Positions 16,419-25,925 are shown, numbered from the stretch's first letter. The stretch: 64,000 nucleotides of DNA from an uncultured Thermoanaerobaculia bacterium (GCA_964440565.1 CAYTTB010000001.1:96627-160626), one strand, 5' to 3'. Made by a program: numbers and translations. Notes: generated by a model not told the origin, from the sequence alone.

Positions 16419-16465
16419 GGCGCCAGTATACGGCCGGCGGCCGGCGGGTACGGTACGGTGGGGGG
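16419..16465. promoter_or_regulatory. Compact divergent promoter region with two -10/N6/GTG units
   Basis: TATACT on minus strand (16425-16430) 6 nt before tmk GTG. TACGGT on plus strand (16454-16459) 6 nt before GTG 16466. Confidence 0.55.
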
Positions 16466-16957: not shown

Positions 16958-17836
16958 TCAGGAGACCACGCGCAGGTACGCCTCCTCCGCCCGGTACGAG
17001 GACCGGACGAAGGGGCCCGCGATCACCTCGAGGCCGAGCTCCCGCCCGGCCGCCTCCAGCTCCGCGAGCTCCTCCGGCCGCCAGTAGCGGGCCACCGGCA
17101 CCTGGCGCAGGGTGGGCCGCAGGTACTGGCCGATGGTGACCACCTGGCACCCGGCCGCGGCGAGATCGGCGAGCACCCGGAGCACCTCCTCGCGGGTCTC
17201 GCCCAGCCCCACCATCAGGCCCGACTTGCGCACGATCCGGGGGGCCCGCTCTGCGACCCGCGAGAGCACGTCCAGCGCCCATGCGTAGCGGCCGGAGCGC
17301 CGCACCTGCCGGTAGAGGCGGGGCACCGTCTCCACGTTGTGGTTGTACACGTGGGGGCCGGCGTCCACCACCCGGTCCACCTGGGCGAGGTCTCCCCTGA
17401 AGTCCGGGGTGAGCACCTCCACGGTGGGCGGGTCCGGGAGCGCCCCGAGCGCGCGGATGCAGGCGACGAAGGCGCCCGCGCCGCCGTCGGGGAGGTCGTC
17501 GCGGTCCACCGAGGTGATCACCACGTGGCGGAGCCCCAGCGCCCGCACGGCCTCCACGAGCTGGCGCGGCTCGTCGGGGTCCGGTGGTCGCGGGCGCCCG
17601 TGCGCGATGGCGCAGTACGCACAGCTGCGCGTGCACACGCGGCCGTTGATGAGGAAGGTGGCGGTCCCGCGGGAGAAGCACTCGGACCGGTTGGGGCAGC
17701 GCGCCTCCTCGCACACCGTGTGCAGGCCGCCGCGCCGCATCGCCGCCTTCACCTCGTGCAGCTCGCCGAGCCGCAGCCTGCGGCTGCGGATCCAGTCGGG
17801 GAGCGCCGGGGCCGGGGTCCGTCCGCCGAAGCTCAT
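16958..17836 (-). CDS. lipA: Lipoyl synthase
   Basis: CEEARCPNRSEC, CTRSCAYC, NHNVETV, KSGLMVGLGET, GQYL, VRSSY. Confidence 0.96.
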   Translation of the reverse strand: MSFGGRTPAPALPDWIRSRRLRLGELHEVKAAMRRGGLHTVCEEARCPNRSECFSRGTATFLINGRVCTRSCAYCAIAHGRPRPPDPDEPRQLVEAVRALGLRHVVITSVDRDDLPDGGAGAFVACIRALGALPDPPTVEVLTPDFRGDLAQVDRVVDAGPHVYNHNVETVPRLYRQVRRSGRYAWALDVLSRVAERAPRIVRKSGLMVGLGETREEVLRVLADLAAAGCQVVTIGQYLRPTLRQVPVARYWRPEELAELEAAGRELGLEVIAGPFVRSSYRAEEAYLRVVS

Positions 17837-18447
17837 GGCCGCACCACCCACGCGTCGTCGTAGCCCGCCGCCCGCATCCGCCGCTTCACCCGCTCGGCCG
17901 AGGCGGCGTCGGGGAACGGTCCAACCCTGAGCTTGAGCAGCAGATTCCCGTCCGCGGTGCGGACCCGCACCACCCGCTGGTGACTCGGCGGGAAGCCGAG
18001 GCGTTCCAGGCGGCGCTGCTGCTTCCGGACCGCTCGCGGCTCGCGCGAGGCCAGGACCTGCACCCAGAAGGCCGGAGACGGCGCCGGCACGGCCCGCCTC
18101 GCCCGCACCGGGCGCGGGGTCGCGGTGGGTGCCGGTGTGGCCGTGGGCCTGGGCGTGGCGGTGGGGACCGGCGGGCGCGAGGTGGGTGCGGGGGACGGCG
18201 ACGGCGCGGGGGTGGTGGTGGGCGCGGTCGGCGTCGCGGTGGGGGTGGGCGCCGGGGCCGGGGCGGGCGAGGCGAGCGGCGGAGCGGGCGGGACGGGGAC
18301 CTCCTCGCTCCGCTCCACGGTCCACGCGGCGGCGTAGCCGAGGACGAAGGCGGCCACGATGAGCGCCGCCACCGCGGCCAGCGCCGCCGTGAGCTGCCCG
18401 GCCGACAGGGTGAGCTCGTAGTACGTCCGGTCGCGCCGCTCACCCAC
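17833..18447 (-). CDS. SPOR-domain membrane protein (FtsN/DedD-like)
   Basis: N-terminal YYELTLS plus TM helix, Pro/Thr/Ala linker, FWVQVLAS..LRVGPF..A..V..RM..GY.DAWVV. Confidence 0.82.
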   Translation of the reverse strand: MGERRDRTYYELTLSAGQLTAALAAVAALIVAAFVLGYAAAWTVERSEEVPVPPAPPLASPAPAPAPTPTATPTAPTTTPAPSPSPAPTSRPPVPTATPRPTATPAPTATPRPVRARRAVPAPSPAFWVQVLASREPRAVRKQQRRLERLGFPPSHQRVVRVRTADGNLLLKLRVGPFPDAASAERVKRRMRAAGYDDAWVVRP

Positions 18448-18459
18448 GCCGCCTCCCGG

Positions 18460-19212
18460 TCACCGGCCGAGCAGTCTCTCGAGCATGGCGAGCGGGACGG
18501 GGAACACCACCGTGGAGGCGTTCTCCGACGCGATCTCGGTGAGCGTCTGCAGGTAGCGGAGCTGGACCGAGATCGGCTGGTGGGCCATGACCTCCGCGGC
18601 CTCGGCGAGCTTCTTCGAGGCGATGAGCTCGCCCTCGGCGTGGATGATCTTGGCCCGCTTCTCCCGCTCCGCCTCGGCCTGCCGGGCCATGGCGCGCTGC
18701 ATCTCCTGGGGCAGGTCCACGTGCTTGACCTCGACCATGGAGACCTTGACCCCCCACGGGTCCGAATGCTGGTCGATGATGGACTGCAGACGCACGTTGA
18801 GCTTCTCGCGCTGGGAGAGCAGCTCGTCCAGCTCCACCTCGCCCAGGACCGAGCGCAGCGTCGTCTGGGCCAGCTGCGAGGTGGCGTAGATGTAGTTCTC
18901 CACGTCCACCACCGCCTTGACCGGGTTCATGACCCGGAAGTAGACCACCGCGTTCACCTTGACCGACACGTTGTCGCGGGTGATCACGTCCTGCGGGGGG
19001 ATGTCGTGGACCACGGTGCGCAGGCTGATCCGCACCATCCGGTCGATGGGCCACAGGACGAACACCAGCCCGGGCCCCTTCGCCTCCGGCAGCACCCGGC
19101 CGAGGCGGAAGATGACGGCACGCTCGTACTCCTTCAGGATGTTGATCCACTTGGCCAGCAGGAACACCGCGATGACGACGATGACGCCGAGTGTCGAACC
19201 GAGCGGGTTCAT
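18460..19212 (-). CDS. Stomatin-like SPFH/band 7 protein (slipin)
   Basis: [55 protein letters not shown]. Confidence 0.95.
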
Positions 19213-20501
19213 CGCTCCCTCCTTTCGGAACCGACGGCGGCGACCCGCAGCGTGCGGCCCTCCACCGCCACCACCCGCACCTGGGAGCCGGCGGGAACCG
19301 GGTCGCCGGCGACCTCGGCGTCCCACCACTCCCCGTGAACCAGCACCTTCCCCGACGGGTCGAGGTCGGTGCGCGCCTCCCCCACCTCGCCCACCAGCCC
19401 CTCCGCCCCGGTGAGCGGCCTGCGGCGGTGGGCCCGGACCACGCGGGTGAGGAGGAAGATCGTCACCGCGGCCACGGTGAGCGCGGTGGGCACGATCACC
19501 GCCAGGCTCACCCGCAGGTCCGGGATGGGAGCGTCGAACAGCATCATGGACCCCAGCACGAACGCGACGAGGCCGGCGAGCGTGAGCAGCCCGTAGCTCG
19601 TCACCTTCACCTCCAGCAGGAACAGCACCACCGCCACGGCGATGAGCCCCACCCCGGCCAGGTTCACCGGCAGCACCGACATCGAGTAGAGGCCCAAGAG
19701 CAGCGCGATGACGCCCACCACACCGGGCAGCACCAGCCCGGGGTGCGAGATCTCGGTGTAGATCCCGAGCATGGCCAGCGCCATGAGGAGGTAGGCGACG
19801 TTGGGGTTGGCCAGGACGGAGAGCAGGCGCTCGGTGGTGGTCGGCGGGATCTCGCGCTCCGCCACCGGCTCGAGCTCGAGCCTCACCTCGCTGCCGTCGA
19901 ACCGGCGCACCGTCCGCCCCTCGAGCTGCCGGTACAGTTCCTCCCGGCTCGACGCCACCAGGTCGATGAGCCCCTTCGCGAGCGCCTCCTGGGCGGTGAA
20001 GGAGAGGCTCTCCGTGACCGCCTTGGCGGCGATCTCGGGATCCCGGCCCCGGCGCTCCGCCAGCGCCCGCACCATCGCCGCGGCGTCCTGGGTGGCCTTC
20101 TCCCGCACGTCCTCGGGGAGGTTCTCCCCCTTGCCCCCCACCGGGTGGGCGGCGCCCGTGTTGGTGCCCGGCGCCATCGCCGCCACGTCCGCCGCCTGGA
20201 CCAGGAAGAACCCCGCCGACGCCGCCTGCGCCCCGGCGGGCGTCACGAACACCGCGACCGGCACTGGCGAGCCGGTGATGGCCGTGGTCATGGCGCGGGT
20301 GGAGGTGAGCAGGCCGCCCGGGGTGTCGAGCTCCACCACGACCAGGGCGGCCCCCATCGCCGCCGCCTCCCGGAGCCCGCGCTCCAGGTACCGCTGCGAC
20401 GCCGGCTGGATGGTGTCGCGAAGGTGCAGCACCGCGATCTCTGCCGCCCCCGCCGGAAGGGCGAGAGACATCGCGAGCACGGCAACGTGGAGCCTCCGCA
20501 T
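19209..20501 (-). CDS. NfeD-family membrane-bound serine protease (long form)
   Basis: [26 protein letters not shown], hydrophobic region with E...PG, C-terminal OB fold with [10 protein letters not shown]. Overlaps stomatin gene. Confidence 0.92.
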
Positions 20502-20518
20502 CGATCGTCTCGCGACCA

Positions 20519-22468
20519 TCATAGCAGCCGTGGGGGTGTCGCGGCGCCCCGGAGGATCTCCCGGGCCAGGGCCGCGGCGCGCCGCCGCTCGGCCGGGGTC
20601 AGCGGCCGCGGGCCGTACAGCTCGAGCTCCGCCAGCGCCGTGGCCTCCGCGAGCGGGGGGGCGAGGGCCGGCCAGGCGGCGGCGGCGCGGCGGGCGATGC
20701 GGCGGAGCGTGGCCCCGGGGGGTACCGGCGTCCCGGCCGCGGCGAGCCTGCGCCCGAGCCGCAGCAGCGCCGCCGGCAGCGGCGGCGGGCGCCTTCGAGG
20801 ACGGGGCCGGAGGCGCGCGAGAAGGGCCGCCGCGGCGACGAGGGCGAGCGGGAGCAGGAACCGCCCCGGCCGGGCGCGGACCGCGGCCCCGGCGCGTGCC
20901 GCCGCCTCGGCGATGGCCACCTGCTCGCCCAGCCCGAACCCCAGCAGGTGCCGGTCCCAGAGCAGCTCCATCCGGTCCAGCAGCCACCGCCAGCGGCCCA
21001 CGGTCCGGACCCCTCCGAACCCCGCCACACGGGTGGGCGGGGAGGGGTCCACGCGCAGCCAGCGGCGGGAGGTCCTGTCCCACACTTCCACCCAGGCGTG
21101 GGCGTTCTCCGCCCGCACCAGGAGGGTCGTGCGGTCGGGGTCGAGGGTGCCGCCGGCGTAGCCGGCGACCACCCGCGCCGGGTGGCCCAGCTCCCGGAGC
21201 ATCGCGGCCAGCGCGGTGGCGAAGAGCTCGCAGTGGCCGCGGCGGGTCTCGAACAGGAACACCGGAAGCGGGTCGCGAGAGAGGGGGACCCGCACATCGA
21301 GGGTGTAGCTGCACCGACGGCGGAGCCACGCGGTGAGGCGCGCCGCGGCGCGCCCGGCATCCGGGGCGTCCCCGGCCACCTCGGTCGCGAGGCGTGCGAT
21401 CCTCGGCTCGTGCCGGGCGACCGCGCGATCGGCCGGGGTGGGCGGTGGGCGGGGCACCGGCTCCGGGCCCACCCACGCGGTGACCACGAGCGGCCCCCGC
21501 CACGGCGAGCCGAGCAGGACGCTCCCGAACCGGTCGCCCAGGAGCGGAAGCGGGGCCTTCACCGCCACCGTGGCGTCGGGCAGCGGCAGGAACCGCCGCG
21601 GCGACAGCACCTCCATCCGGACCCGGCGGGCGCCCTCGAGCGGTCGCACCCCCGCCGGCCAGTACATCCCGCGCTCGTACGGCAGCGGCCGCCGCCCCCG
21701 CGAGGGCGCCCGCCACGCCCCGGTGCGCAGCCACAGCGTGGCCGCGCCGCGCAGGTACATCCACCCCGTCCCCTCGGGGAGCCGCGGCGACCCGGTGACC
21801 ACCACCGCCAGGCGGCGCGAACGTTCCACCGTCCCCACCCCGGCCACGTCCACGGTGGCGCCGAACCCGGACACCAGGCCGGCGGAGCCGAGCCCGGCGG
21901 CCACCGGCGAGCGCAGGCGCGGCATGACCACGAACACCGGCGCCGCGAGGAGGAGCGAGGCGGCACCCGCCGCCGCGGCCTGCCGCCACCGCACCGCGGC
22001 CCGGTGGGGCGGGACCCCGAGCCCCTCGAGCAGCAGGCGCATCCCCAGCCCCCATCCGAGGACCGCCGACGCCGCCAGGTAGCCGAGCAGGGCCCAGTGG
22101 TGGGAGGAGGCCACCGCCACCGTCCACACCACCCCCACCACCTGGAGCGCGCGGAGAAAGGTGGCACGGTCGGCCACCAGCGCCACCCGCACCGCGGCCA
22201 GCAGCAGCAGCAGGTGGCCCAGGGGGCGGAGCGGGCCCACCCGCCAGCCGCCGGCCGCGGCCACCGCGGCCACGATGGCCACCCCGAGGAGGTTGAGCGC
22301 CCACCGCGGGGCCCGCGGCGGCGGGCGGCGGGCGTACAGGAACGTCAGGATCGCCGCCGCCGCCGCCGGCGCCCAGAACGGCGGGAGCACGATCCCCACG
22401 AGCGGCAGCGGCAGCATCGCCCAGGCGAGCAGGAGGCCCGCGCGACGGCGGTGAAGGACCGCGTTCAC
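20519..22468 (-). CDS. DUF3488-type membrane transglutaminase-like protein (TgpA-like)
   Basis: N-terminal TM helices, FVVMPR, then [21 protein letters not shown] catalytic triad. Confidence 0.88.
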
Positions 22469-23412
22469 CGGGTCGCCTCCCCGCCGGCGGATGCGTCCGC
22501 GGGCAGCGGCCTGAGCTCCGCGAGCGGGCGCAGCAACGCCGCGCGCTGGCGGAGGGCGGACACCGGCCCCACCACCCGGCGTCCCAGCCGGAGGCCCACC
22601 GGCCGCCCCTCGGCGAGGCGCCGGAGCGCCTCGGTGGCGGCGGCGCTCACCGCGCGCTCGAACCGGGCCTCGGCGTCGGGGCCACGGGGCAGCCTCGGGT
22701 CGAGGTGGAGCAGGACCGGCTCCGGGCGGGGCGCCTGCCGCTCGGTGACGATCAGCCGACGCTGGCGGGCGGTCTGCTTCCAGTGGATCTGGCGGCGCTC
22801 GTCGCCCTCGCGCCACGGTCTGAGCTGCAGCACCTGCCCCTCGCGGCCGCCCCGCCGCCAGCCCCCCTCCCGGGGGCGCCCGCGCTCCCGCTCCCGCGGG
22901 GACGTCGGCCCGGCGAGAATGCGGGGGTAGACGAGGAGGCGGGTGGCGGGAACGGCCTCCACCGACTTGACGAAGAACCCCAGCGGCAGGAGCACCTCGA
23001 GGCGCCACGGGCCCACCGTGTGCCACCCCCGCCGCTGGAACGTGAGCTCCACCGCGTGGCGGGCGCGCCCGCGGGCGGGGAGGTACGGCTCCACCAGCAC
23101 CGCACGACCGCCGGCGTCGCGCAGCACGAGCCCGTACGCCGGGAACAGGCGGGAACGGTTCTCGAGCGTCACCTCCACCTCCGCCGGTCGCCCCGCGAAC
23201 GCCTCCCGTGGCCAGCGCACCGCGACCCGGCACCGGCCCAGGACCTGGCGTGACCAGGTCCCGGCCACGACGTAGGCGCCGAGGAGCAGGGCGAACAGCA
23301 TCATGAGCGGGTTGTTGCCGGTGTTGACGGCGGCGCCGCCGACCATCACCGCGGCGGCCAGGTAGACCGCGCCCCAGCGCGTGAGGCGGAGCGAGAAGCG
23401 CAGGAACCGCAT
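22465..23412 (-). CDS. DUF58-domain protein
   Basis: AAVNTGNN, RRGWH, PLGFF, LVYP, LRPWREGDERRQIHWKQTAR. Confidence 0.88.
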   Translation of the reverse strand: MRFLRFSLRLTRWGAVYLAAAVMVGGAAVNTGNNPLMMLFALLLGAYVVAGTWSRQVLGRCRVAVRWPREAFAGRPAEVEVTLENRSRLFPAYGLVLRDAGGRAVLVEPYLPARGRARHAVELTFQRRGWHTVGPWRLEVLLPLGFFVKSVEAVPATRLLVYPRILAGPTSPRERERGRPREGGWRRGGREGQVLQLRPWREGDERRQIHWKQTARQRRLIVTERQAPRPEPVLLHLDPRLPRGPDAEARFERAVSAAATEALRRLAEGRPVGLRLGRRVVGPVSALRQRAALLRPLAELRPLPADASAGGEATR

Positions 23413-23438
23413 CGCCGCCTCCGCCGCCGCGGGCCGCG

Positions 23439-24401
23439 TCAGGCCCGCGGCACCGGCACCGCGTCCAGGATGGCGCGGATCACGGCCCGCTCCCTCCGGC
23501 TCCTCTCCCACCCGTCGTCCTCGAACGGGTCGGCGAGCAGGATCCGGTGGGCGAGGACGGCCTCGGCGGTCTCCTGCAGGTCGTCCGGGGTGACGTACGG
23601 CCGGCGGCGGACCAGCGCCAGGGCACGGGCGGCGCGGTACCACGAGATGGCGCCGCGGGTGGAGACGCCGAGCGCCAGCCCCTCGTGCCGCCGGGTGGCC
23701 TCCACCACGTCCATCAGGTAGTCGAGGAGCGTCGGGGCCACGTGCACGTCCTCCACCCTGCGCTGGAGGTCGCGCACCTCGTCGGCGGAGAGCACCGGCT
23801 CGAGGGACGCGAGCTCGGGCGCGGCACCGCCCGAGGCCACCAGCGCCCGCTCCTCGTCGCGCTCCGGGTAGCCCATGGAGAGGCGCATCAGGAACCGGTC
23901 GAGCTGGGACTCGGGCAGCGGGTAGGTGCCGGTGGACTCCACCGGGTTCTGGGTGGCGATGACCAGGAACGGGTCCGGCAGCCGGTGGCGGGTGGTCTCC
24001 ACAGTCACCGCCCCCTCGTTCATCGCCTCGAGCAGCGCCGACTGGGTGCGTGGCGCCGCACGGTTGATCTCGTCGGCGAGGACCACGTTGGCGAACAACG
24101 GTCCGGGCACGAACTCGAACCGGCCCGGCCGCTCGCGGTACACCGAGATCCCGATGATGTCGGAGGGCAGCGTGTCGGAGGTGAACTGGATCCGCTGGAA
24201 CTCGAGGTCCAGCGAACGCGCCAGTGCCTGGGCGAGGGTGGTCTTGCCCACGCCGGGGACGTCCTCGAGCAGCACGTGACCGCGCGCCAGCAGGGCGGCG
24301 ATGAGCGCGTCCACGATCTCGGGCTTGCCGCGCACCACCGTACCCACCGCCGAGCGCAGGCGCTCGAGCCGGTCCAGGGCCTGGGCGGTGACCGGGGTCA
24401 C
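23439..24401 (-). CDS. MoxR-family AAA+ ATPase
   Basis: HVLLEDVPGVGKTT, RIQFTSD.LPSDI.G, LADEINRA.PRTQSALLEAM, ATQNP.E..GTYPLPESQLDRF. Confidence 0.95.
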   Translation of the reverse strand: MTPVTAQALDRLERLRSAVGTVVRGKPEIVDALIAALLARGHVLLEDVPGVGKTTLAQALARSLDLEFQRIQFTSDTLPSDIIGISVYRERPGRFEFVPGPLFANVVLADEINRAAPRTQSALLEAMNEGAVTVETTRHRLPDPFLVIATQNPVESTGTYPLPESQLDRFLMRLSMGYPERDEERALVASGGAAPELASLEPVLSADEVRDLQRRVEDVHVAPTLLDYLMDVVEATRRHEGLALGVSTRGAISWYRAARALALVRRRPYVTPDDLQETAEAVLAHRILLADPFEDDGWERSRRERAVIRAILDAVPVPRA

Positions 24402-24778
24402 GGGGCGGCCTCCGGGTCCAGGAGGTGCACCAGTCGGAGGTGGTCCTCGACGGCGACGCCGAGGAGCTCGGGGAGGCGGGAGAGGTCCTCCTCGGTCACC
24501 ACCAGGTTCACGTCGCGGGCCAGCGCGGCCAGCGGGTCACCGGTGGTCCCGGAGGTCACCACCGCCACCACCAGGAACCGCCGGCGGCGGGCCGGCGGGA
24601 GGCGGCGCCACGCGTCGAGCCCCGCCTCGGGCACCACCGCCGCGGTCACCCGGCCGGCACCGGAGGCTGGTGGGGCCGGCGTCGGCCCCCCCGTCACCTC
24701 CGGACGGAACCCCGCCTCCTCGAGGGCGGGGACCAGCGCCTCGTACCGCGCACCCGCGGGGAGCAGCACCCGGGTCAC
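24398..24778 (-). CDS. Small hypothetical alpha/beta protein
   Basis: GTGA overlaps with pilT-like upstream and moxR downstream. 126 aa with alternating strand/helix pattern. Confidence 0.65.
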   Translation of the reverse strand: MTRVLLPAGARYEALVPALEEAGFRPEVTGGPTPAPPASGAGRVTAAVVPEAGLDAWRRLPPARRRRFLVVAVVTSGTTGDPLAALARDVNLVVTEEDLSRLPELLGVAVEDHLRLVHLLDPEAAP

Positions 24779-25878
24779 CGGCGGCCTCCCATGTCCAGCA
24801 GCCGCAGCTCCAGCTGGTGCGGGACCGCCGCCTCGGCGAGGGCCGTGTCGCGGTCGATGGTCCCCGCGCGCACCAGCCGCTCGAGCTCCGCGTCGAGGGG
24901 ACGGGCGCCCAGCGGCATGGCGTCGCGGAGGGCGTCGGCGAACGCCTCGGCGGTGAGGTCGCCCCGCTCGAGAAGCGTCCGCGTGGCGGGGAGGTTGCGC
25001 CACACCTCCACCACCGGGCGGGTCGCGCCGTCGCGGGAGCGGACCAGGCGCTGCACGAACACCGCCTGGAGCGCGCTCGCCACCTGCCTCAGGGCACGCT
25101 CGCGCGGGCGGTCGGCGAGCAGCCCCACCAGCCGCTCCACCACGGCGGCGCTGTCGAGGCCACGCATCACCCCGATCACCAGGTGCCCCGCCTCCGCCGC
25201 GTCGAGCGCCAGCGCGGCGGTGGTACCGTCGGGCACCTCGGACAGGGCGATCACGTCGGCCCCGAGGCGAACCGCATCGGCGACGCCGGAGGCGTGGTCG
25301 GGCACGTCGATCCCCACCTCGCGCTGGTGCACCACCGCCCGCCGGTGAGGGAGCAGGTGCTCGATGGGATCCTCCACCGTGACCACGTGACACGGACGTT
25401 CGGCGGCGATCCGGCCCACGAGCGCGGCGAGGGTCGTCGAGGTCCCGGACCCGGCCGGGCCACCCACCAGCACGAGGCCGGCGCGGAGGGACGCCGCCTC
25501 CGCCACCTCCGCGGGAAGCCCCAGCGAGTCGAGCTCCGGCAGCCGGCGGGGAAGCAGGCGCACCGAGGCCACCAGGGTGCCGCGCTGGCGCATCAGCGTC
25601 ACGCGGTAGCGGGTCCGGCCGGGCCGGGCCACCACGAAGCTCGCCGTTCCCCGCTCGCGCAGCCTGGAGGCGGCGTGAGGCGCGTGCGCCAGGAGGTGGA
25701 GCGCGAGCGTCTCGGTCGCGAACGGGGTGAGGCGCCCGATCCCCGGCAGCGGCGCGGGGTGGAGGTCGCCGTCGCGGCGGACCAGCGGCGGTACCCCCAC
25801 CGAGAGGACCAGGTCACGGGCCGCCGGGTCGTTCCCCGCCAGCCGCTCGATCAGCTCCACCACGTCGAGGCCCAGCAC
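24775..25878 (-). CDS. PilT/PilU-like ATPase with degenerate catalytic motifs
   Basis: RVTLMRQRG, VTVEDPIE, HQREVG, AEAGHLV give the PilT fold. Walker A reads GPAGSGTSTT. Confidence 0.85.
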   Translation of the reverse strand: MLGLDVVELIERLAGNDPAARDLVLSVGVPPLVRRDGDLHPAPLPGIGRLTPFATETLALHLLAHAPHAASRLRERGTASFVVARPGRTRYRVTLMRQRGTLVASVRLLPRRLPELDSLGLPAEVAEAASLRAGLVLVGGPAGSGTSTTLAALVGRIAAERPCHVVTVEDPIEHLLPHRRAVVHQREVGIDVPDHASGVADAVRLGADVIALSEVPDGTTAALALDAAEAGHLVIGVMRGLDSAAVVERLVGLLADRPRERALRQVASALQAVFVQRLVRSRDGATRPVVEVWRNLPATRTLLERGDLTAEAFADALRDAMPLGARPLDAELERLVRAGTIDRDTALAEAAVPHQLELRLLDMGGRR

Positions 25879-25925
25879 CAGCCCAGTATACGGCGGGGCC
25901 GCGCGCTGCGCCCACCGGGTGCGGC

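Follow-up and report, generated by a model that had tools for sequence, protein, structure and literature searches.

A catalytically degenerate PilT-family protein and a putative pseudo-receiver at the head of a MoxR–DUF58–transglutaminase operon in uncultured Acidobacteriota

The closest described systems and the PilT-like protein

Two described systems share components with the five-gene operon considered here, which is found in a stretch of 64,000 nucleotides (the window) from an uncultured Thermoanaerobaculia bacterium (GCA_964440565.1, CAYTTB010000001.1:96627-160626). The first comprises the PilT/PilU retraction ATPases (family TIGR01420; structures 5FL3, 2EWV, 3JVV, 6OJX, and 9N32). The second is the MoxR–DUF58–TgpA operon, of the type PA2875–PA2874–PA2873 in Pseudomonas aeruginosa. 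This trio is common, with matches to both DUF58 and TgpA following moxR in about 40 of the 80 MoxR loci sampled. In the window, a PilT-like gene and a gene for a 126-amino-acid (aa) protein are followed by moxR, a DUF58 gene, and tgpA, these last three with the same order and domain content as in the described operons and with an intact TgpA triad. The original prediction, made from the sequence alone, placed a PilT-like pseudo-ATPase at the head of such an operon.

The PilT-like protein has the full-length fold of the PilT/PilU ATPases, with 28–35% identity, and shares with them the Asp box (VEDPIEH), the HQREVG motif, the Walker B Glu, the first His of the His box (GHLV), and the arginines of RFR/QRG. 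It matches Thermus PilT2 (5FL3) with an E-value of 4e-54. The AlphaFold2 (AF2) model (predicted local distance difference test score, pLDDT, of 81.5) shows the two-lobed N2D and CTD fold of PilT over its full length, with template modeling (TM) scores of 0.78–0.87 against solved PilT and PilU structures, and Foldseek comparisons of the model with 5FL3, 6OK2, 9N32, and 3JVV give E-values of 5e-34 to 1e-28 and TM scores of 0.73–0.87. The score on PF00437 (T2SSE) is 88.9 bits, above the cut-off of 24.9, whereas that on TIGR01420, the NCBIfam model for PilT/PilU, is 237.8 bits, below the cut-off of 319.1.

The differences are concentrated in the motifs of the active site. In the Walker A segment (GGPAGSGTSTT), the codon ACC (Thr) stands where Lys is expected. 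In the alignment to Thermus and Aquifex PilT, the Walker B region has DVIALSEVPDGT in place of DVIMVGEMRDRET; the window protein reads GADVIALSEVPD here, with DVIALSEVPD as Walker B, the Glu retained, and DPD, Gly, and RD lost. The His box is LVIGVMRGLD, compared with LVLSTLHTLD in the Thermus and Aquifex proteins, and its second His is an Arg (GHLVIGVMRG). The deviations read in the original prediction (GPAGSGTSTT with ACC for Lys, ALSEVPD in Walker B, and VMRG in the second His box) are all confirmed, the first in the window sequence and the other two in this alignment. In addition, the segment equivalent to AIRNLIRE has diverged to ATRTLLER.

The genomic setting differs as well from that of the PilT/PilU genes. 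The window gene is away from pilus genes, it is paired with a predicted pseudo-receiver, and it heads a moxR operon. It is the sole T2SSE match on its contig of 165 kb, the PilB–PilT genes being on another contig, and no pilus genes were found in five related loci of 12–21 kb. The same genome has two more PilT/PilU-like genes on contigs C38 and C39 (loci L011 and L013), catalytically canonical and with extensions: one protein has 480 aa with a C-terminal coiled-coil tail and the other 508 aa with an N-terminal extension of about 150 aa.

The degenerate clade and its partner gene

The clade sample consists of the 21 nearest database relatives (44–57% identity, from Thermoanaerobaculales and Acidobacteria metagenome bins), 17 species genomes, and five metagenome contigs. 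In all clade relatives, Walker A is GPAGSGR[ST]T, with Lys replaced by Arg; the His box has S[LV]RG instead of TLHT, and Walker B has GAxV...SE... instead of DPDVILVGEMRD. These motifs bear out, for the whole clade, the proposal that the protein is a PilT paralog with a degenerate catalytic site. Some members have even exchanged the Walker B Glu (for Asp, for Ser, and for Gln in P0122). Lys, GEMRD, and TLHT reappear from the 23rd database match on, in the nearest canonical relatives. The Arg codon of the relatives is CGC, CGG, CGT, or CGA, and Thr at this position is unique to the window among clade members.

The Thr is a later change, restricted to the lineage of the window. The original prediction had asked whether the Lys-to-Thr change is conserved and had noted that orthologs keeping Lys would speak against it: all orthologs have Arg, so the degeneration is conserved but not the Thr. 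Strain-specific decay and sequencing error were considered and rejected, since the orthologs have Arg and not Lys, ACC is two base changes off CGN, and assemblies from three sources (JGI, NCBI, and Logan) contain the identical window protein.

Maximum-likelihood analysis places the degenerate proteins in a monophyletic group (100/100 support), with a stem of 1.3 substitutions per site. They are nested among orphan PilTs of Acidobacteriota, apart from the PilB-linked PilT of the same genome and from its two PilT/PilU-like paralogs. Because all 20+ orthologs share the Lys-to-Arg change, the His-to-Arg change, and the remodeled Walker B, the degeneration is ancestral to the clade and does not reflect decay in one strain. 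The open reading frames (ORFs) of the clade are all intact in the 17 genomes and five contigs. Pseudogenes in the relatives were considered and rejected, the three in-frame TGA flags falling upstream of the true starts. The ratios of nonsynonymous to synonymous substitution rates (dN/dS), computed on trimmed regions for seven close pairs, are 0.05–0.17 for the pilT-like gene, 0.05–0.35 for the small ORF, and 0.02–0.15 for moxR. Three invariant motifs, EVWR, QLELRLLD, and FTQQL, are new to the clade. On these comparisons, the PilT-like protein is a maintained variant under purifying selection and not a product of decay.

From the general knowledge of P-loop NTPase and PilT active sites, we infer that motor function has been lost. 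An alternative, which we hold to be quite improbable, is that the clade is still an ATPase, the Arg residues of Walker A and of the His box forming an altered but working phosphate site, in an active motor or a slow timer, with only the Thr protein of the window dead. The two positions have changed to Arg together and without exception among the orthologs, a pattern that resembles remodeling rather than decay, and the retained Asp box, QREVG, Walker B Glu, first His, and RFR/QRG arginines would fit such a site. However, replacement of Lys by Arg in P-loop NTPases usually preserves binding and abolishes most hydrolysis, the Walker B Glu is replaced in some members, and the window has Thr.

One could also see in the window copy a decaying relic, heading to loss after the Arg-to-Thr change, as in most of its family. 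The Thr is unique to it, it forms the longest terminal branch of the tree (1.13), and its distance to the sister family exceeds that of its two nearest sisters by about five identity points, an excess not present in moxR and DUF58. Further, the pair is gone from 18 of 20 genomes of the family, and an open frame is weak functional evidence at 76% GC. On the other side, the full-length frame retains EVWR, QLELRLLD, and LRD; the identity to the nearest relatives (50–57%) equals that of DUF58 (52–57%) and is above that of TgpA (44–45%); the promoter box and the gene overlaps are intact; and the AF2 model folds confidently. With both sides considered, a relic is very improbable, but the excess divergence of about five points, not seen in moxR and DUF58, means that constraint on the window copy may be somewhat relaxed.

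There are other degenerate lineages in the same orphan-PilT subfamily. In P0140, P0272, and P0287 (contigs L112, L113, and L114), the His box residue is R, N, P, or D, and the GE of Walker B is SE or ST. P0140 also has Lys replaced by Arg, and in one group of the subfamily the Lys-to-Arg and His-to-Arg changes arose independently. L112–L114 share a conserved neighborhood, in which a copper P-type ATPase (YHS/HMBD) and a gene of the thioredoxin/AhpC-like kind are found; no moxR was found on the contigs of these other lineages (the P0140 group and P0055). Tandem double-PilT proteins of about 650–1020 aa (P0124–P0132 and P0136) outscore single canonical PilTs on the clade profile. In P0132, the N-terminal PilT copy is degenerate (GNRGSGRSCT, without His box) and the C-terminal copy canonical.

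For the 126-aa protein and two of its orthologs, Pfam, including PF00072, gives no match at E ≤ 1. A profile of the orthologs (A1) matches the C-terminal half of Zn-ribbon proteins of about 250 aa across Acidobacteriota (E-values of 1e-14 to 1e-8). These have Zn_ribbon_4 at the N-terminus, and in at least one of them the C-terminal half is a Response_reg domain (50.1 bits on PF00072, cut-off 30.2). The AF2 model of the 126-aa protein (pLDDT 86.4) has five strands alternating with helices, and its top Foldseek matches are the receiver domains of AmiR, CsgD, CpaE/TadZ, and PhoB (probability 0.97–1.0, TM scores of 0.5–0.6, and weak E-values of 4e-3 to 6e-2). In an alignment with CheY, the phospho-acceptor position after β3 is Gly, Pro, or Glu in all seven clade members, and the acidic pair after β1 and the Lys after β5 are missing in them too; two Zn-ribbon relatives retain all of these residues. 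The 126-aa ORF is predicted to be a pseudo-receiver, that is, the receiver half of a former Zn-ribbon–receiver protein from which the zinc ribbon and the phospho-acceptor Asp have been lost.

The Zn_ribbon_4–Response_reg genes lie directly downstream of a canonical PilT gene of the APKVILVGEMRD type, and in the tree no canonical PilTs are closer to the degenerate clade than those that precede them. The pair formed by the PilT-like and the 126-aa proteins descends from a two-gene cassette of canonical PilT and Zn-ribbon–receiver, widespread in Acidobacteriota. Neither the pseudo-receiver nor this descent figured in the original prediction. Gene order does not differ between the cassette and the window pair, and their second genes are homologous, with the signature LPPxxRRR...T.D..AF..G.NL.V..ADL.RL. 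Unlike the window pair, the cassette has a PilT with K, GEMRD, and TLHT and a partner with an N-terminal zinc ribbon and, in some, the phospho-acceptor Asp, and it has neither the TATACT box described below nor a moxR nearby. Since key catalytic residues of the one and the phosphorylation residues of the other are missing, and the zinc ribbon of the partner as well, both members of the cassette are likely to have lost their chemistry in this lineage.

No second cassette copy was found in the genome of the window. Beside the canonical cassette, including that of other orders of the same class, there is no moxR and no pilus gene, and the neighbors vary. The cassette is apparently uncharacterized; at loci L046, L047–L051, L053, and L103–L108, it has varying neighbors (HD-GYP-like, EF-G, YceG, and OmpA) and no pilus genes.

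In another reading, the degenerate PilT and the pseudo-receiver act at the base of the type IV pilus, as adaptor, brake, or heteromer partner of an active PilT/PilU, with a moxR linkage that is accidental or due to co-regulation. The ancestor is indeed a member of the PilT family with a receiver protein as its partner; the genome has PilB–PilT and two further canonical PilT/PilU-like genes; and genomes that lose the pair can retain the MoxR module. Moreover, in Vibrio and Acinetobacter, retraction driven by PilU can still be supported by a PilT with a dead Walker A, and an inactive PilT can therefore act as an adaptor. PilB is found in 61 of the 61 genomes of the order, which agrees with a pilus role but also makes a phyletic test against type IV pili uninformative. 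However, pilus genes adjoin neither the pair nor the ancestral cassette, the relocation before moxR occurred on the same branch as the catalytic degeneration, the pair is translationally coupled to moxR in the family of the window, and the AIRNLIRE-like segment has diverged. We consider the pilus reading unlikely.

Operon organization, distribution, and possible role

The five operon genes are co-directional, from 25878 to 20519, and their coordinates in the window are given in Table 1 with those of the downstream genes. GTGA overlaps join the pilT-like gene to the 126-aa ORF, the latter to moxR, and DUF58 to tgpA. These overlaps, the short gap between moxR and DUF58, and the intact Cys-His-Asp triad of TgpA, which aligns with that of P. 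aeruginosa TgpA (6G49), are as the original prediction described them. The extent proposed there, 20519–25890, holds at its 20519 end; at the other end, 25890 is the first base of the TATACT box and not of a start codon, and the start is the GTG at 25878 by alignment of the orthologs, all of which begin with M-L-x-F/L-D. AAA_3 scores 208.6 bits in MoxR, the translation of which contains PGVGKTT and DEINR, and the DUF58 protein scores 26.9 bits (cut-off 23.4).

Table 1. Features of the operon and of the downstream genes (coordinates in the 64-kb window)
Feature	Coordinates	Strand	Remarks
TATACT –10-like box	25885-25890	-	6 nt before the pilT-like start codon; leaderless-mRNA geometry
pilT-like, 367 aa, catalytically degenerate PilT-family protein	24775-25878	-	PF00437, TIGR01420, 5FL3 match, AF2 model
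Walker A GPAGSGTSTT	25432-25461	-	Thr codon ACC at 25441-25443
126-aa predicted pseudo-receiver, REC-like fold, without phospho-acceptor Asp, without Zn ribbon	24398-24778	-	GTG start overlaps pilT-like stop
moxR, AAA_3 + AAA_lid_2, 320 aa	23439-24401	-	GTG start overlaps stop of 126-aa ORF
DUF58 protein, 315 aa	22465-23412	-	26 nt past moxR; Pfam
TgpA-like membrane transglutaminase, 649 aa, TgpA_N + Transglut_core + DUF4129	20519-22468	-	Pfam; Cys-His-Asp triad intact
nfeD	19209-20522	-	
SPFH/band-7	18460-19212	-	
SPOR protein	17833-18447	-	
lipA	16958-17836	-	

No clade locus examined whose contig extends far enough deviates from the order pilT-like, small ORF, moxR, DUF58, and tgpA, and in every clade member examined the pilT-like gene heads the operon, as had been proposed. 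The overlap between the pilT-like gene and the small ORF is constant; the small ORF overlaps moxR in the family of the window and is 24–75 nt away from it in the sister family. All 25 loci (the window and 24 others) carry, 5–8 nt ahead of the start codon, a TATACT box, which in one of them reads TATAAT. On both strands of the window, TATA[AC]T occurs only twice, at 25885–25890 and at 16425–16430 (minus strand), each time 6 nt upstream of a GTG start (pilT-like and tmk, respectively). This geometry suggests a leaderless transcript starting with the pilT-like gene and, more generally, the use of TATACT-N6-start leaderless promoters in the lineage of the window. A generic sigma-70 scan missed the pilT-like box. 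A coupling of the pilT-like gene to the upstream rsmD was considered and rejected, since the upstream gene varies (rsmD, SpoU, or an M48 region) and the pilT-like gene has its own TATACT box.

Downstream, tgpA, nfeD, SPFH/band-7, SPOR, and lipA abut with gaps of 0–12 nt, in a co-directional block of nine genes from the TATACT box to lipA. With such gaps, nfeD–SPFH–SPOR–lipA may share the operon transcript in the genome of the window. The order nfeD–SPFH–SPOR–lipA is the same in the relatives; in the sister family, a PAP2 gene on the opposite strand is usually present between tgpA and nfeD. Scans of the window between 17 and 28 kb for Rfam families, for terminators, and for promoters of the sigma-70 consensus found none, and the defense-system libraries gave only marginal PADLOC matches.

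The pair occurs in 16 of 17 genomes of the sister family and in two of 20 genomes of the window's own family. A sample of 80 MoxR loci drawn from many phyla (1.32 Mb) includes none with a PilT-family gene within 10 kb, and the degenerate PilT and pseudo-receiver head is missing from MoxR–DUF58–TgpA operons of every other sampled lineage. The pair adjacent to moxR is confined to one order of uncultured Acidobacteriota, probably Thermoanaerobaculales. The synteny of the pilT-like gene and moxR that the original prediction proposed to survey is thus present in every clade member examined, but it does not extend beyond this order. A general PilT–MoxR association is rejected by the 80 loci, and a lead from Lentisphaerae was not reproduced (one Victivallales locus in the sample).

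In three genomes without the pair, TATACT persists 70–90 nt upstream of moxR and opens a mini-ORF of 20–27 codons, the end of which coincides or overlaps with the start of moxR; this looks like a deletion that spared the promoter. In one pair-less genome, rsmD abuts moxR. Four pair-less genomes of the same family have, upstream of moxR, a conserved gene for a single-pass membrane protein of about 250 aa, with no Pfam match and 46–50% identity between genera (L094, 5009–5788; L095, 6087–6977; L097, 7642–8403; L101, 1859–2596). In L094, L095, and L097, a TATACT box and a mini-ORF of 20–27 codons lie between this gene and moxR.

In the reading that we favor, and to which we give about an even chance, the pair is an accessory head of the MoxR module, serving as a scaffold or switch and not as a motor. 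The original prediction had also put forward a scaffold or adaptor function, with a possible action on pili or surface proteins, and both proposals are tentative. The PilT-like protein would no longer be a retraction motor. It would probably still form a PilT-like ring, since RFR/QRG, the Asp box, the Walker B Glu, and the first His are kept, and nucleotide binding by this ring may persist, if only poorly or with no turnover. Together with the pseudo-receiver, it would constitute a scaffold or switch, either devoid of catalysis or very slow, made stoichiometrically with MoxR, that could modulate or localize the membrane-bound MoxR–DUF58–TgpA machine. An accessory role next to MoxR is favored because the relocation before moxR and the catalytic loss map to the same branch and because MoxR/vWA/transglutaminase cores, in the accounts of the PFNA and Esr systems cited below (for PFNA, as summarized there), carry lineage-specific heads.

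Several observations weigh against such a role. Of the 20 surveyed genomes of the window's family, 18 have lost the pair, and so has G226 (one sister-family genus); of ten pair-less genomes checked, nine retain a tgpA ortholog, and moxR–DUF58–tgpA is present in all eight fetched loci, usually followed by nfeD. The MoxR module is therefore independent of the pair and, since relatives run it alone, the pair is accessory and not part of the core. The 80 MoxR loci of other lineages are without a nearby PilT-family gene, and the synteny evidence comes from one order, so that shared ancestry accounts for part of it. The other degenerate lineages of the orphan-PilT subfamily adjoin copper-ATPase and thioredoxin-like genes and not moxR, and the extra divergence of the window copy counts in the same direction. 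Finally, the Arg at the Walker A position might still allow some hydrolysis.

A more specific version of the favored reading, in which the module of dead motor and dead receiver docks either on the hexamer formed by MoxR or on DUF58/TgpA at their cytoplasmic face, and a former pilus motor gates the AAA+ chaperone that controls a periplasmic transglutaminase, is distinctly unlikely. If true, it would represent a two-ring machine in which the secretion-ATPase fold is newly used as a regulatory pseudo-enzyme, and the module might make cross-linking in the envelope depend on what the type IV pilus is doing.

Independently of that mechanism, the clade offers a clean natural case, with two phosphate-contacting residues jointly changed to Arg and long fixed under purifying selection, and with a defined canonical ancestor; the phosphorylation site of the partner receiver was lost along the same lineage as the PilT catalytic residues. 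The scope is limited to one order of uncultured bacteria, in which the pair is dispensable.

Comparison with known systems

Full-text literature searches (PilT with MoxR, pseudo-ATPase, and degenerate Walker A paralogs) returned no description of such a protein and, as far as they show, pseudo-enzymes of the PilT/GspE secretion-ATPase superfamily are apparently undescribed. In the TadZ/CpaE proteins of Tad pili (4DN6, 4DAD, 4LDA, and 4N0P), a receiver fold without phosphorylation chemistry is combined with a non-canonical NTPase, as in the window pair, and their receiver domains are among the Foldseek matches of the 126-aa protein. TadZ is a docking or localization hub. In TadZ/CpaE, however, the ATPase is of the MinD/ParA type and not of the PilT type, the domains are fused, and homology with the window is limited to the receiver fold.

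Cores of MoxR, vWA/DUF58, and transglutaminase with a lineage-specific signaling head are known in the PFNA cluster of Bifidobacterium (PMC8430577, as summarized in PMC12067865) and in the Esr pathway of Schaalia (PMC13622651). As far as the PFNA summary and the Esr account describe them, these heads are Ser/Thr kinase, FHA, FN3, or β-propeller surface proteins, none of which occurs among the five operon proteins of the window by Pfam. The window operon encodes no surface sensor protein, and its neighbors are rsmD, nfeD, SPFH, SPOR, and lipA. The clade thus adds another type of head to the MoxR–DUF58–transglutaminase core, the function of which is only now emerging with the Esr pathway, and the pair could reveal which inputs this core accepts.

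In thaumarchaea, pairs of vWA and MoxR/GvpN are linked to type IV pilus loci, with a predicted regulatory role (Makarova et al. 2016, PMC4858521). These pairs differ in that they are archaeal, stand beside complete pilus loci with active ATPases, and lack a transglutaminase. With MoxR/vWA genes beside loci of type IV pilus-type secretion ATPases, they constitute the nearest published parallel to the association of a PilT-family gene with moxR in the window.

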